In this document: positions 14,824-33,966 of the stretch, in pieces
Layout: each line of letters begins with the position of its first letter
Numbering within the stretch: the first letter of the stretch is position 1
NCBI GenBank assembly: GCA_963731265.1
Contig: CAVSUE010000001.1
Span: 1,216,001-1,280,000, forward strand
Reading direction: 5' to 3'
Origin: an uncultured Verrucomicrobiae bacterium
Lineage (GTDB): Bacteria; Chlamydiota; Chlamydiia; Chlamydiales; Rhabdochlamydiaceae
Length of the DNA: 64,000 nucleotides
Program-made: the position numbers and the translations under genes
The notes under the pieces: generated by a model
What the model was told of the DNA's origin: nothing
The model's input: the letters and a program-made list of their open reading frames with translations, nothing else
Database searches by the model: none

Positions 14824-15553
14824 TGAGGTAATTAGCCGCCTGTGTCAGATGAGGTTGCTGAAGTTCGATTGCTAAAAGTTGGTTGAGCGTCGTTTCTTCA
14901 AATCCCGCATTTCGGCCGCTGCCTTCGGTGGTTTCGTAATTTAAAAAATTGGACAAGGAATTGGTGTGCTCATAAGAATACATCGTCCCTTTGTCAAAAC
15001 GGTAGATGCTGAATGACAAGCTATGGGCGTCTGGTTGACTGACGTGCCTCGATGATTCCTCGGTGAGCAATTGCTGCAGCATATTTTTTATGGTAGGAAG
15101 GGCATTTCTTATGTCTGCCGCTCTTCCAATTTGCATTTTGCATTGATCATTGTATTGCATCACCACCATGATTGCAGAACGAGGGCCATTTGCGTTCACA
15201 ATAAATGGGCGACGAAAAAGGCCATCGATAATCTGGTTTCCTCGGGTGATTCTTTCGGCAAGTTCGGTTGGGTCAATTCTCGTTGGTCCGATCGACCCTT
15301 GAGGAAGAGGCAGCTGTTGGGGAATTGACCTTGTTTCTAGAGTTGCGGAGGAAGACGCTCCAAATAGGCTTAAAATCCATTGCCAGATTTGATTTATCCA
15401 CCCGCACAACCCCCCTTCATCCGACGCTTTGGCATTCAGGCGCGTGAGTGTAGAAGCTGTAAATTGGTTCGGGCATGGGGCTGCGGAAGTTTTGCCTGGT
15501 AAATCTAGAGGAGCATGTTTTGGAACGGTCAACGTAAAACCGATTTTATTCAT
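14810..15553 (-). CDS. Hypothetical protein, tandem paralog 1
   Basis: Shares STLTRLNAKASDEG..GWIN..WQWIL.LFGAS with neighbour. Confidence 0.8.
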   Translation of the reverse strand: MNKIGFTLTVPKHAPLDLPGKTSAAPCPNQFTASTLTRLNAKASDEGGLCGWINQIWQWILSLFGASSSATLETRSIPQQLPLPQGSIGPTRIDPTELAERITRGNQIIDGLFRRPFIVNANGPRSAIMVVMQYNDQCKMQIGRAADIRNALPTIKNMLQQLLTEESSRHVSQPDAHSLSFSIYRFDKGTMYSYEHTNSLSNFLNYETTEGSGRNAGFEETTLNQLLAIELQQPHLTQAANYLINQL

Positions 15554-15665
15554 CCGTCCTCTGGCGGAAACCCGGCCCTTAAGGGCCGGGTATTTTCACA
15601 ACAATGTTGGGCCGAGTACGAAGTTCGGCCCCAACTTAATCCCAGGCCTTAAGGCCTGGGTTCAC
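15554..15665 (-). mobile_element. Family C element (112 bp, IS200/IS605-like non-autonomous)
   Basis: Hairpins CCCGGCCCTTAAGGGCCGGG and CCCAGGCCTTAAGGCCTGGG; follows TTCAT, ends TTCAC. Confidence 0.85.
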
Positions 15666-15671
15666 AAAATT

Positions 15672-16346
15672 TTAGAGTTGTCTGATGAGATATTGGCCAA
15701 CATTGCGTAGATATTCTTGTTCTGGAATTCCCCTCTGCAAGATCATAAGCGCGCTTCGGGCGTCGATTCCTGGGAATGATCCGGAGCCACTTCCGTGACG
15801 GCCCGTGTCAAAGTTTATCGAATCATCGATATGCCAGTAGTTAAAAGAATTGTCCCGATTCTTTTCAAAGAGCATCGTATCGATTTCAAGCTTCGTCTCT
15901 GCAGCTTCTCCGCGGGTCAGCAATTCCCGCAACAGCGCTTTCGTGACATCAATGCTATTCCTCTGGTCGCTGGCGCTGCCAAAAGACACTTTACACAGAC
16001 CATTGTACTTCATGACGACGACGATTGCCGATCGGGGGGAATTCCCATTGACGATAAAAGAGCTCTGAAAGTGGTTATCAATGATCCCTTTTCCTCGCTC
16101 AATTCTACTTTCTAATCCCGTTATGATGGGTGCTTCTAGCGCAGGAGACGCTCCAAATAACCTTAAAATCCATTGCCACACTCGATTTATCCACCCGCAG
16201 CACCCTTCATCCGAGGCTTTGGCGTTCAGGCGCGTGAGGGTAGAAGTTGTGTACGGGGTCAGCCTAGGAGGACGTGAAGTTGCAATGGGGCTTGTTTCAT
16301 GACTATTTTGTACCGGGGCTGCAAGGGTAAAATCTATTTTATTCAT
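15672..16346 (-). CDS. Hypothetical protein, tandem paralog 2
   Basis: Start MNKIDFTL chosen by alignment with MNKIGFTL of paralog 1. Confidence 0.8.
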   Translation of the reverse strand: MNKIDFTLAAPVQNSHETSPIATSRPPRLTPYTTSTLTRLNAKASDEGCCGWINRVWQWILRLFGASPALEAPIITGLESRIERGKGIIDNHFQSSFIVNGNSPRSAIVVVMKYNGLCKVSFGSASDQRNSIDVTKALLRELLTRGEAAETKLEIDTMLFEKNRDNSFNYWHIDDSINFDTGRHGSGSGSFPGIDARSALMILQRGIPEQEYLRNVGQYLIRQL

Positions 16347-16454
16347 AACTCGCCACTCTTTTAAAAAAACGGGAATTTTACATTTTTTTTGGTAAAATCG
16401 CAACAAAACTTAAGTTGCTTGAAAGTGTAAAATATTTTAGATAAACTGCGGATT

Positions 16455-31377: not shown

Positions 31378-31965
31378 ATGCGATTGATTCTCGGCTCACA
31401 ATCTCCACGTCGAAAAGAAATTTTAAGTTTCTTTGCAATTCCTTTTGTGCAAATTCCCTCGGCGTTTGACGAAAATAGCGTCCCTTTCCGCGGCAACCCC
31501 TCGGAATATGCTGAGGAGCTTTCCCTTAAGAAGGCCCAGGAGCTCGCTGGACCCTTTTCGAACGATGTGATTCTAACGGCGGACACTGTCGTTTATTTTA
31601 AAAATAATATCTACAACAAACCCAATGACAAAACTGAGGCGTTCGAGATGTTAAAAACACTCTCAGGGCAATGGCATCAAGTCTTTACTGCCGTCACGAT
31701 ATTAAAAAAAGATCTTTGCGTTTGTGGATTTGAAGAGACAAAAATTCTTTTTCATCCCTTGACAGACGAACAGATCCGCCTTTATCACCAGAGCTGCGAA
31801 TTTCTCGACAAAGCCGGAGCCTATGCGATCCAACAGGCCGGCAGCATTCCGATTGCGCGTATCGAGGGATGTTATTACAATGTGATGGGGCTGCCGCTCA
31901 ACACGACGAGAGAACTTTTGCTTCAAGCGGGGATCGATCTTTGGAAACATCTGAAACCCTTTTAA
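31378..31965 (+). CDS. maf: Maf-family nucleoside triphosphate pyrophosphatase
   Basis: LGSQSPRR, ADTVV, KAGAYAIQ, NVMGLP motifs. Confidence 0.95.
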   Translation: MRLILGSQSPRRKEILSFFAIPFVQIPSAFDENSVPFRGNPSEYAEELSLKKAQELAGPFSNDVILTADTVVYFKNNIYNKPNDKTEAFEMLKTLSGQWHQVFTAVTILKKDLCVCGFEETKILFHPLTDEQIRLYHQSCEFLDKAGAYAIQQAGSIPIARIEGCYYNVMGLPLNTTRELLLQAGIDLWKHLKPF

Positions 31966-32050
31966 TTAAGTTGGGCCCAGCTTCCAACTCGGCCCAACAT
32001 TGTTTTTGAAAATACCCGGCCCTTAAGGGCCGGGTTTCCGCCAGAGGACG
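31965..32050 (+). mobile_element. Family C element lacking one terminal hairpin
   Basis: ATTAAGTTGGG...CCCGGCCCTTAAGGGCCGGGTTTCCGCCAGAGGACG then ATGAA. Confidence 0.85.
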
Positions 32051-32055
32051 ATGAA

Positions 32056-33966
32056 ATGAAAAACGGGCAACTCCTGCAGACACATCGTGATTCAAAAGCT
32101 GGGCACTGGCTTCGTCGGCATGCTCCTCTTTGCAGCTGGCTGCATCGAGAATGTGCTTCTACATCAGCGCCATCGACTGCGCCTGCTGCAAATCTGAAGC
32201 GACGACACTGCCATTGGCCAACTTTTGTTTCACTCTGGGTATATACATTTGTGTTCGCTGCAGGCTCTTTGTTGGCAGTTGGACAAGTTTCGCCTCAGAG
32301 CGATGAGCGGGCCGAAGGAGAGATTTCAGATCTGAAAGAGCGTACCGGAATCAACAAACTGCATATTCTGTATTTGCTACAGTCCAAGGAATTCGACCGC
32401 GCTATCGAGCTCTACCTGGATTACAAAAGGGCGTTGGGTAGGGACGACTTTGAAATCTTGCAGCAAATGGCGATGATCATCCTTGAACAAGGCGCCCGCA
32501 GCACGGATCCCGAAACGCAGTTGATCAGCATTTTTGGTTCTAGCATCGCGGGTATTTCAGCCTCGATCGATGTCCTCGAGACAGGGATCACCAGCCCGCA
32601 GCCCCAGACGCAAATGGCGGCCATTCAATTTTTAGGCCGCATGCAGGATGACAGATGCGAAGAACTCCTCAACAAGGCGATGTCCTCAGATTATTTTTTT
32701 ACGCGCTTGGAGGCCGCTTATCAGCTCGCCATCCGCAAATCGCGGACAGCCGTCGGGCATATTGAATCTTTGATGAATAGAGTCCCTCCCGAAATGCGCT
32801 TTTTTTTCCCTCAATTTTTCGCCTTGATCGGCACCTCGGATGCGATCGCGTTGCTCCGCAATATGATGGATGAACCATTTCATATGACGAGGATCGAAGC
32901 CATTTTGAGCGCAGCCCGCTATGGCCGCGATGATCTCTTGCCCATGATCCGCTCGCGCGCAACGCACTTGAACATCGCGGAACAGGAAGCTTGCGCATGC
33001 GCTATCGGCTATCTCAAAGACTCCAAGTCGATTCCTCTACTGAAAAAATTAGCTCAATCTCCATCGACAAACGTCAAACTCGCGGCAAATTATTCCTTAT
33101 TTCTTTTAGGAGAGGAATCTGCCAAGAATGAGATTGCCATTTTGGCCAAAGAAAGAGATATTTTTGCCATTTCATTGCTCGGAGAAATCCCTGGAATGGA
33201 GGAGATTCTTTTTCCTTTGACCCAAGATCCTCAGATGCAAGTACGTTTCAACGCTGCTTTCTCGGCGCTGAAGCTCGGCGACCACCGCCACTTTCATGTC
33301 TTTCTGGAATTTTTAATCCGCGATTCGCGCGATCTAGGATTCCAGCCCCAACATAGCGTTGGAGGCTCGCTTATGGCATGGAAGGTCATATCTTCTGCTC
33401 AACAACATCAGAAAAACAATCCCAACGACTTGATGGCTTTATCACTCAGCGTCAGAGAACATCTGCTTAAGTTATGCCTCGACCTTCCAGCCGAGGAGTT
33501 TCTTAAAATCGCCAATGTCCTGTTTGACTCTAAGCAAGCCGACCTGATTCCGGTGCTTATCGACCTGATGGAAAATCTTCAAACTCCCGCAGCGATCGCT
33601 CTTTTAAAAAATAAAGCCCACACTGCCGGAGCACCCCTGACACGGGCCTATTGCAATCTTGCCTTGCTGCGGTTAAAACAGGGCGAACCCTATAAAACAG
33701 TTGTCTTGAGCTGGATTTCAGCGAAAAAATATACGGAGATGTTTCGTTTTCGGCCCATGCTGCCCTGGGATCGAAAGAAGTTGGAAAAATCGAATGCTTT
33801 TGAGCTTACTCCGGAAGAAAATTCCAGGCTCCTCATCGAATGTTATCAGACCATCGCCGTCGAGCATGACAAGCAGAGCATCGAGATCATCCTCGATGGA
33901 CTCAAAACCGGACATCCCAAAAACCGTCCCATCCTCGCGGGCCTCCTCGTCCAAGCCATTCAGTAA
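32056..33966 (+). CDS. HEAT-repeat protein (CT350-like)
   Basis: HEAT-like repeats (..VR.NAA..L); position after maf and before lptD. Confidence 0.85.
   Translation: MKNGQLLQTHRDSKAGHWLRRHAPLCSWLHRECASTSAPSTAPAANLKRRHCHWPTFVSLWVYTFVFAAGSLLAVGQVSPQSDERAEGEISDLKERTGINKLHILYLLQSKEFDRAIELYLDYKRALGRDDFEILQQMAMIILEQGARSTDPETQLISIFGSSIAGISASIDVLETGITSPQPQTQMAAIQFLGRMQDDRCEELLNKAMSSDYFFTRLEAAYQLAIRKSRTAVGHIESLMNRVPPEMRFFFPQFFALIGTSDAIALLRNMMDEPFHMTRIEAILSAARYGRDDLLPMIRSRATHLNIAEQEACACAIGYLKDSKSIPLLKKLAQSPSTNVKLAANYSLFLLGEESAKNEIAILAKERDIFAISLLGEIPGMEEILFPLTQDPQMQVRFNAAFSALKLGDHRHFHVFLEFLIRDSRDLGFQPQHSVGGSLMAWKVISSAQQHQKNNPNDLMALSLSVREHLLKLCLDLPAEEFLKIANVLFDSKQADLIPVLIDLMENLQTPAAIALLKNKAHTAGAPLTRAYCNLALLRLKQGEPYKTVVLSWISAKKYTEMFRFRPMLPWDRKKLEKSNAFELTPEENSRLLIECYQTIAVEHDKQSIEIILDGLKTGHPKNRPILAGLLVQAIQ
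32077..32243. repeat. Family D palindromic element in frame in the HEAT gene N-terminus
   Basis: GTGATTCAAAAGCTGG..CTGGC pairs with GCCA.TGGCCAACTTTTGTTTCAC; related half copy at 40808. Confidence 0.8.

Follow-up and report, generated by a model that had tools for sequence, protein, structure and literature searches.

A gene-less three-hairpin repeat adjoining ATGAA in environmental chlamydiae is probably a non-autonomous IS200/IS605-type transposon

IS608 of Helicobacter pylori and ISDra2 of Deinococcus radiodurans, transposons of 1.3-1.8 kb that encode TnpA and TnpB, insert 3' of the short motifs TTAC and TTGAT, respectively. Palindrome-associated transposable elements (PATEs) have reportedly been described in Haloquadratum. 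Other short bacterial repeats, such as ERIC, BOX, Correia and the Rickettsia RPE, have inverted-repeat ends and/or target duplications, or are inserted in frame into genes, and we know of none of this type that regenerates a stop codon and supplies a ribosome-binding motif at ATGA overlaps. Environmental chlamydiae are obligate intracellular bacteria in which mobile DNA is thought to be limited. The passages of PMC10055086 (Meers et al.) that treat the IS200/IS605 family describe subterminal hairpins, an adjacent motif and an encoded one, scarless excision and no target duplication; they also mention gene-less PATE forms of the family and the ISGst elements of Geobacillus stearothermophilus, among which ISGst5 has TTCAT as its adjacent motif. 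Here we describe Family C, a repeat present in three copies in a 64-kb stretch (the window) of a contig assigned to the Rhabdochlamydiaceae (CAVSUE010000001.1, positions 1,216,001 to 1,280,000), which we consider likely to be a non-autonomous, single-strand IS200/IS605-type transposon, that is, a PATE.

As the initial annotation had it, each of the three copies ends (A/G)GAGGACG(G) immediately 5' of ATGAA. One copy, c1, lies on the minus strand and two, c2 and c3, on the plus strand, c3 being shortened at its 5' end. Their parts and surroundings are as follows, in window positions.

15554-15665, minus strand: copy c1, full length, 112 nt (nhmmer E 4.9e-39).
15571-15590: hairpin 3 of c1.
15641-15660: hairpin 1 of c1.
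15549-15553, minus strand: adjacent motif ATGAA of c1 (TTCAT on the plus strand), the start of a 247-aa open reading frame (ORF) at 14810-15553.
16342-16346, minus strand: the c1 target without an insertion, namely ATGAA at the start of the upstream paralogue, with ordinary intergenic DNA before it.
21623-21735, plus strand: copy c2, full length, 113 nt, between the RNase R and methylpurine-DNA glycosylase genes (nhmmer E 4.2e-40).
21624-21626, plus strand: TGA within the GTGAAC of c2, the stop codon of RNase R (19092-21626).
21628-21647, plus strand: hairpin 1 of c2, CCCAGGCC TTAA GGCCTGGG, beside the internal end motif; the right end on the other strand.
21657-21679, plus strand: hairpin 2 of c2 (central), whose stem sequence varies by sub-family with pairing kept.
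21699-21718, plus strand: hairpin 3 of c2, CCCGGCCC TTAA GGGCCCGG, with one mismatch; the left end on the other strand.
21719-21735, plus strand: tail of c2, TTTCCGCCGGAGGACGG, with GGAGGA at 21727-21732; the most conserved part of the family, Shine-Dalgarno-like and capable of a small hairpin.
21736-21740, plus strand: adjacent motif ATGAA of c2, the start of the glycosylase gene (21736-22320).
About 31966-32050, plus strand: copy c3, without GTGAAC and hairpin 1, starting right after the TAA of maf (31336-31965); nhmmer model positions 29-116, E 1.9e-28.
32051-32058, plus strand: ATGAAATG, in which the ATGAA touching c3 opens a 2-codon ORF only (ATG AAA TGA) and the HEAT-repeat gene starts from the second ATG, at 32056.

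On the plus strand c1 reads TTCAT^CCGTCCTCTGGCGG...GGGTTCAC (a caret marks the junction of element and host); in gene orientation it runs GTGAAC, hairpin 1, hairpin 2, hairpin 3 and the tail TTTCCGCCAGAGGACGG. It sits between two functionally uncharacterised tandem paralogues, and its end abuts the ATG of the downstream one. Copy c2 reads GTGAACCCAGG...CCGGAGGACGG^ATGAAG, the glycosylase ATG following directly on its last base, and c3 reads ...CCAGAGGACG^ATGAAATGAAAAAC. The proposal that a start codon follows all three copies thus holds for c1 and c2 and fails for c3, whose touching ATG is stopped after a single further codon. Because its GTGAAC end and hairpin 1 are missing, c3 is probably immobile. 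Two hairpin 20-mers and the 17-mer linker, allowed up to 3 mismatches, match the copies only (3, 2 and 3 matches, as compared with 0.00, 0.00 and 0.22 in shuffled sequence), and the repeat is far beyond chance.

Family C is not confined to the window. A single degenerate-hairpin-pattern scan of genome contigs returned at least 106 loci, of which 80 were taken with 10-kb flanks, and an nhmmer profile built from the three window copies gave at least 87 matches, amounting to at least 51 distinct copies (E<1e-9) in the window and at least 13 assemblies; at least 27 of these are in one assembly, MFD00008.bin.2.72. The carriers include several Rhabdochlamydia/Rhabdochlamydiaceae metagenome-assembled genomes (MAGs), one Simkaniaceae MAG, one Parachlamydiales MAG, MAGs named 'Chlamydiae bacterium' and three MAGs labelled Verrucomicrobia or Verrucomicrobiae. 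Among the loci compared, the nearest relative DNA is that of MFD00008.bin.2.72, itself labelled Verrucomicrobiae, whose syntenic stretches share 69-79% DNA identity with the window (blastn; 79-83% over the two longest megablast blocks). Family C copies are near-identical between genomes whose genes share only 69-79% DNA identity, and they are uniform in length, with no read-through variants. A BLAST search with c2 turned up nothing in collections of plasmids and phages.

The scan pattern also matched DNA of Bacteroidota, Patescibacteria, Streptomyces and others, where the sequences proved to be unrelated hairpins or another repeat family and were set aside. That other family, found in Bacteroidota and Patescibacteria MAGs (L002, L004, L010, L020, L021, L024, L031, L035, L070, L077, L078 and L099), is a different three-part repeat, GGGCTAAAGCCC ... 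CCC(A/G)G(C/G)CCTTAAGG(G/C)C(T/C)GGG ... GGGCTTTAGCCC, which has a central TTAA-loop hairpin in common with Family C but not the ends. Rhabdochlamydiaceae SMAG_U5417 carries two odd forms, at L066 about 9984-10037 and L001 about 8209-8250: one is head-to-head, with two tails on one hairpin and the flanks ...CAT and ATGAG, and the other is a single hairpin made of the left arm of hairpin 3, the right arm of hairpin 1 and TTCAC. Both may have arisen by deletion or recombination.

The element is exactly GTGAAC...GGAGGACGG, 112-121 nt long, and contains no gene. A full copy consists, in order, of GTGAAC; hairpin 1 (CCCAGGCC TTAA GGCCTGGG); ATTAAG; hairpin 2 (GGGCCGAG CTTCGTA CTCGGCCC); AACATTGTTTTTGAAAATA; hairpin 3 (CCCGGCCC TTAA GGGCCGGG); and the tail TTTCCGCC(A/G)GAGGACGG, followed by the flanking ATGAA. 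On the strand opposite the genes this becomes 5'-TTCAT^CCGTCCTCCGGCGGAAA - hairpin 3 - hairpin 2 - hairpin 1 - TTCAC^-3'. Hairpin 1 is separated from its end by 5 nt and hairpin 3 by 17 nt, and the ends themselves are unlike (GTGAAC... and ...GGAGGACGG); as in IS200/IS605, terminal inverted repeats (TIRs) are absent and subterminal palindromes present, with pairing kept in 35 copies. The initial annotation had correctly read the two full copies as ending TTCAC on the other strand, without TIRs in the usual sense and with two related subterminal hairpins; it had omitted the third, central hairpin.

RNA folds of 131-nt stretches at c1 and c2 reached -58.5 and -59.9 kcal/mol, as compared with -38.6 and -42.4 for shuffles (z-scores of -5.3 and -4.8). 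Across the 35-copy alignment, 97.9% of 1109 cells are paired, as compared with 93.2% in shuffles, 0 of 500 of which came as high, and sliding the partners by one column lowers pairing to 60%. Eight pairs are altered on both sides, including six in hairpin 2 (6 of its 11 pairs): the three hairpins are maintained by compensatory changes. The tail and hairpin 3 are nearly invariant across relatives, and the stem sequence of hairpin 2 differs from sub-family to sub-family. The tail can fold into a 5-bp stem closed by a GGA loop and, in the Rhabdochlamydiaceae loci L066 and L001, CCTTC GGA GAAGG replaces CCGCC GGA GG(A)CGG, a change that looks compensatory in this comparison of two variants only. 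Rfam gave nothing at gathering score over the window, with only E>1 noise at c2, and a promoter scan of c1 and c2 found no promoter-like sites; terminator-like matches numbered two at c2 (0.6 expected) and none at c1, counts from which we draw no conclusion.

Empty sites fix the boundaries. In Rhabdochlamydia JOPF242 (L069), the contig contains a short segment twice, once filled and once empty. The filled site reads ...TTTCATAC^GTGAAC...GGAGGACGG^ATGAACAGAATT and its paralogous empty counterpart ...TTTCATAC^ATGAACAGAATT, the right flank continuing in each as ATGAACAGAATTAAAATCAATTTAT, so the inserted DNA is exactly GTGAAC...GGACGG and nothing is duplicated. The copy in L049 stands before ATGAAAAAAGT, and the orthologous site in L030 is empty (...GAGCTAAGGTGAAACG^ATGAAAAAAGT); the gene 3' of the L049 copy is probably the orthologue of an L030 ORF of the ATP-synthase alpha/beta family (Pfam). 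In the window, the start of the paralogue upstream of c1 (16336-16346) has the same ATGAATAAAAT as the c1 target, with the element absent. Since the two empty sites and this paralogous gene start lack the element, ATGAA is host DNA and lies outside it. Two pairs of loci were rejected as clean empty sites: the window and L056 3' of 28109, since another repeat occupies this place in the window, and a partial copy in L030 and window 60244, where homology runs from TTAA onward only and is no more than suggestive.

Among the observations that the initial annotation had named as counting against its proposal are empty sites showing ATGAA to be part of the element and further copies with variable flanks. 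The first is contradicted by the host ATGAA of L069, L030 and the window paralogue. As to the flanks, positions 1, 2 and 4 are fixed on the 3' side of 35 distinct full copies (A35; T35; G25/C6/T2/A2; A35; A29/C4/T2; then no preference). The 5' flank shows no consensus. The element itself starts G30/A5 and then TGAAC, its last bases on the active strand being TTCAC in 30/35, TTCAT in 3/35 and GTGCAT or GGTCAT in the other 2/35. Ten of the 35 copies stand before ATCAA, ATTAA or ATAAA, and the left end stays GTGAAC with these right flanks as well as with ATGAC; because the left end is constant whatever the right flank, the TGAA at both junctions is not a target duplication. Family C thus has a one-sided host motif of 4-5 nt, no target duplication and last bases related to the host motif, as IS200/IS605 elements do.

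The view of Family C as mobile DNA with IS200/IS605-like anatomy, already put forward in the initial annotation, is borne out by the empty sites, the lack of duplication, the TTCAC/TTCAT far end and the subterminal hairpins. For a PATE of this kind, TTCAT would be the transposon-adjacent motif of the host and TTCAC, the last five bases of the element, the transposon-encoded motif. A Y1 HUH transposase encoded elsewhere, whose class and single-strand chemistry we infer, would cut the strand opposite the genes after each motif; the excised element would form a single-stranded circle and be pasted after another TT-N-AT site without duplication. Because the complement of TTCAT is ATGAA and insertions within genes would be lost, survivors would pile up at harmless ATGAA sites: gene starts, ATGA overlaps, TGA stops and gene tails. 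The GTGA of the element would replace the ATGA of the target, leaving an upstream gene that stops there still stopped, and the last bases of the element place GGAGGA 3 nt before the downstream ATG.

Several results weigh against this assignment, among them the searches for an enzyme. Pfam found no Y1_Tnp, TnpB or IscB, the enzymes predicted in the initial annotation, in 53 window ORFs (6 flanking and 47 further), whose domains are housekeeping and eukaryote-like only; no match in 18 ORFs (8 and 10) picked beforehand by an HUH or double-CxxC pattern; and, in the element-bearing loci (about 0.58 Mb, counting overlaps), no transposase in 150 of the 154 ORFs that measure 100-190 aa. The four remaining ORFs are L003:5896-6354, covered in the pattern-picked set, L030:13773-14075, L030:14505-14825 and L086:221-523. 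TnpB-sized ORFs (340-520 aa, n=102) were passed through a CxxC filter only, and the 2 that passed went to Pfam. Nor was a longer element with the same two ends found, there being no properly oriented pair 0.5-3 kb apart among the nhmmer partial matches. A GAA 1-3 nt before the foot of hairpin 3 could pair with the TTC of TTCAT, but no guide partner is evident at the other end in the 35-copy alignment, and copies flanked by ATCAA, ATTAA or ATAAA, like those starting ATGAAC, carry the same internal sequence without a co-varying guide. On the contig fragments available, copies of either orientation stand within 80 kb of each other on one contig, and the replication-strand bias known for IS200/IS605 elements is not evident. 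On the gene strand, 3 G-T and 5 A-C cells were counted, which does not settle which strand folds.

Simple insertion, moreover, fails at some sites, which likewise tells against the assignment: at c1, and at L049 as compared with L030, the native spacer of the empty counterpart is missing beside the element. It also gives no account of the L030 spacer GGTGAAACG, which resembles the first bases of the element, of the left end of L098 (GTGAAATGAAACCC), or of the absence from syntenic L056 of both c2 and the methylpurine-DNA glycosylase gene (about 660 nt in all). Around that last site the stretch from RNase R to DUF502 (window 21565-22354, L056 4251-4383) is otherwise syntenic, and either gene loss or gene gain may account for the difference.

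We next consider whether start codons are themselves the target, as had been proposed. Among 41 copies with a settable 3' boundary, the flanking ATG opens an ORF of at least 80 codons in 16, and such a long ORF begins 5-26 nt further 3' in five more copies and in c3. Of the 29 copies whose flank extends to 600 nt or more, 11 have a long ORF in frame with the ATG and 8 have no forward ORF and face a convergent gene ending 4-62 nt away. These counts are lower bounds, as genes of MFD00008 are broken by frameshifts (the BipA and ATP-synthase pieces in L030). There are 203 ATGAA sites on the two strands of the window, 10 at predicted gene starts, 22 intergenic and the rest within genes. The share expected at starts is consequently 5% if all ATGAA sites are hit, and 31% (~13/41) if only the sites outside gene bodies are. 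Because 10 of the 32 sites outside gene bodies are gene starts, the excess of start codons needs only a TTCAT target and loss of in-gene insertions, and the observed 16/41 fits these two without recognition of starts. Targeting of start codons as such is not supported, given that figure, the 10/35 full copies without a flanking ATG and the 8/29 that face the tail of a convergent gene. What stands of the proposed ATGAA targeting is the conserved host motif, TT-N-AT/ATGAA; gene starts are favoured only indirectly.

At L017, from 7144 onward, ATCAA stands directly 3' of a copy and is in frame with an ORF of 461 codons, the first ATG of which comes 24 nt further 3'; this may be a start codon altered after insertion, or a non-ATG start. 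In MFD00008.bin.2.72, the genes for BipA, ATP synthase alpha/beta, ArgRS and the Glu/Leu/Phe/Val dehydrogenase family appear as adjacent ORF fragments, listed here.

L030 13700-15800, L030 1000-2700 and L032: fragmented housekeeping genes of MFD00008.bin.2.72.

The fragmentation suggests frameshift errors or pseudogenes, which would lower ORF-based counts in that assembly.

The element also bears on the gene upstream. Among the 41 copies with a set 5' boundary, which we examined for upstream ORFs of at least 80 codons in the same direction, the upstream ORF stops precisely in the T(G/A)A at nt 2-4 of the element in nine (TAA in L049); only one (L044) runs deeper, to a TAA in the loop of hairpin 1. 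All nine have ATGA in the right flank, so removal of the element restores the upstream stop inside ATGA. Indeed, when c2 is removed in silico, ...AAG CGG TGA becomes ...AAG CG^A TGA AG, an ATGA stop/start overlap. Six copies (c2, L100, L049, L058, L005 and L007) combine an upstream stop in the element with a long ORF at the flanking ATG, and their junctions indicate insertion into 4-nt ATGA stop/start overlaps, three of which are still present uninserted in the window. Both reading frames survive because the first bases of the element, GTGA, mimic the ATGA of the target.

At the other end, GGAGGA, the built-in Shine-Dalgarno of the initial annotation, ends 3 nt 5' of the ATG and is invariant in 35/35 full copies. 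It lies within the small conserved hairpin of the tail, a segment expected to be under transposase constraint. With gene starts taken as longest-ORF guesses, GGAG, GAGG or AGGA occurs 4-18 nt upstream of 9/53 window genes, three of the nine being supplied by Family C, and a Shine-Dalgarno-like motif precedes only 6/50 of the other window genes. A translational role for GGAGGA is plausible. More tentatively, the ends may have been shaped such that coupled ATGA operon junctions serve as a safe harbour, GTGA re-creating the stop and the tail giving a strong GGAGGA to a host that seldom has one; in spreading through chlamydial operons the element would turn coupled junctions into structured, Shine-Dalgarno-driven ones. 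The result would be a transposon adapted to the borders of coding sequences, beyond being tolerated there. A chlamydial TnpA may be what moves it, perhaps together with a TTCAT-reading nuclease guided by RNA.

The alternative that survives best is that Family C is a REP-like (repetitive extragenic palindrome) repeat moved or maintained by a RAYT/TIRYT, which would likewise use Y1 HUH chemistry but be domesticated and maintained by the host. Short GC-rich palindromes in intergenic DNA, the first bases C-CGTC-C on the other strand and the lack of a transposase adjoining any copy in the loci scanned are all compatible with such an origin, and passages of PMC3733652 describe palindromes with GTAG or CGTC at the end, linked to RAYTs and present in the PVC group among others. 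The same passages, however, give REPs as single palindromes of 20-40 bp with the tag at the stem, whereas a Family C unit measures 112-121 nt, contains three hairpins that differ from one another and has ends that are unlike, and its CGTC lies 1 nt from one end and not at a stem. The strict host-side motif and the precise empty site also speak against a REP. REPs often stand in inverted pairs, with copies on either side of a RAYT gene; no RAYT gene flanked by copies was present among the loci scanned. We regard this origin as unlikely.

Less probable still is a non-autonomous element of a rolling-circle Y2 HUH transposase (IS91/Helitron-like), whose hairpin-marked ends would lie beside a short host motif. 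Such an element would share the subterminal hairpins, the one-sided short motif and the absence of duplication and TIRs, and GTGAAC contains GAAC, presumably the IS91 target tetranucleotide. However, what is conserved on the host side reads AT-N-AA, not GAAC, and the sixth flank base is C in only 8/35 copies; TTCAT is a documented IS200/IS605 adjacent motif, and the copies are uniform in length, with read-through variants absent.

Just as improbable, in our view, is site-specific recombination across a TGAA core, by an integron attC-like system or another recombinase, in which the element might travel with a gene. The presence of TGAA at both junctions and the joint absence of c2 and the glycosylase gene from L056 would suit it. 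Against it, the empty site of L069 is ATGAAC and the filled left junction GTGAAC; the left junction is constant and position 3 on the right varies among G, C, T and A, which exchange at a common core does not predict. No recombinase gene is seen beside the copies, most of which come without a gene.

Two further explanations are contradicted by the existence of empty sites. An ordinary DDE-transposon MITE (miniature inverted-repeat transposable element) with the outer hairpins as imperfect terminal repeats could draw on the similarity of hairpins 1 and 3 and some inverted likeness of the ends, but is highly improbable given the clean, duplication-free empty site of L069, the lack of both TIRs and target-site duplication, the unlike ends (GTGAAC and GGAGGACGG) and a conserved motif on one flank only. 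We give the least credence of all to a non-mobile structured leader or intercistronic RNA providing the ribosome-binding site and start of many genes: structure conserved by compensatory changes, GGAGGA before ATG and the 16/41 copies at gene starts are in its favour, but filled and empty sites coexist, 10/35 full copies lack a following ATG and 8/29 face a convergent-gene tail, near-identical copies occur across genomes with genes 69-79% identical in DNA, and there is no Rfam match.

Other repeats accompany Family C in the window. A second family, roughly 167 nt long and with inverted arms inside the repeat, has copies at window 4848-5013 and 45552-45718 and at L005 2720-2888, with 92-96% identity between the window copies and 95% to the copy in the related MAG. 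Each window copy borders the ATG of a minus-strand gene, TerC (4002-4850) in one case and a NUDIX gene (45060-45554) in the other, and the two starts are preceded by 20 nt of almost the same sequence. A third, larger intergenic family with hairpin cores is found at 3583-3950 (two exact tandem 184-nt units), 5010-5190, 28241-28368, 40759-40929, 42286-42477 and 47363-47464; its copy at about 28241 stands where a related MAG has a Family C copy (L056 9916-10037). Tandem coding repeats of 66 nt and 120 nt occur in LRR and WD40 proteins (35688-36439 and 51440-52315). Together with a TLC ATP/ADP transporter (45840-47336), an F-box protein (39117-40208) and DciA, all encoded in the window and typical of this group, these proteins mark the host as an environmental chlamydia.

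PATEs and the TTCAT adjacent motif are already in print; Family C is apparently undescribed. The literature searched yielded no description of it in chlamydiae and no report of a transposon whose end restores a stop codon at ATGA overlaps, and the main text and 2 supplement files of PMC9723776 make no mention of IS200 or IS605. Family C adds a well-delimited PATE-type family for environmental chlamydiae, with near-identical ends common to at least 13 assemblies. It illustrates how a 5-nt target complementary to ATGAA can make a transposon seem directed at start codons, and how the end sequence of an element can render insertion into an ATGA overlap silent for both genes. For annotation, the RNase R stop codon of the window falls inside the repeat, and operon expression may be affected in bacteria poor in Shine-Dalgarno motifs. 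For enzyme discovery, Family C indicates where to look for a chlamydial Y1 transposase, and perhaps for a TnpB or IscB that reads TTCAT.

In comparison with known systems, Family C is like the ERIC, BOX, Correia and RPE repeats in being co-transcribed with its neighbours, structured and tolerated at gene borders. The CGTC- or GTAG-tagged palindromes, REPs and REPINs linked to RAYTs, as presented in parts of PMC3733652, share with it GC-rich extragenic palindromes, a link to Y1 HUH enzymes and, near one end of Family C, CGTC; Family C differs in its composite three-hairpin unit, asymmetric ends and defined host-side motif, and in that no RAYT was seen in the loci scanned. IS608 and ISDra2 resemble it in insertion 3' of a 4-5-nt motif and hairpin ends, and their single-strand peel-and-paste transposition and scarless excision, as outlined in PMC10055086, are what we envisage for Family C, which by contrast encodes nothing and shows no traceable guide-motif pairing of the IS608 type. 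Closest are the PATEs: going by the relevant passages of PMC10055086, they too are short and gene-less, with subterminal hairpins at both ends, many copies per genome, no duplication, a one-sided host motif and a related last-base motif, and the TTCAT of Family C equals that of ISGst5. Judged by its size (112-121 nt) and the lack of an Rfam match, Family C leaves no room for a guide RNA, which PATEs often include. It departs from PATEs further in a cognate TnpA that is inferred only, in a third, central hairpin whose sequence is free and whose pairing is kept, in a motif that is loose at position 3 (TT-N-AT), in ends that leave both neighbouring ORFs intact (the GTGA stop and GGAGGA before ATG) and in its host group, the environmental chlamydiae.

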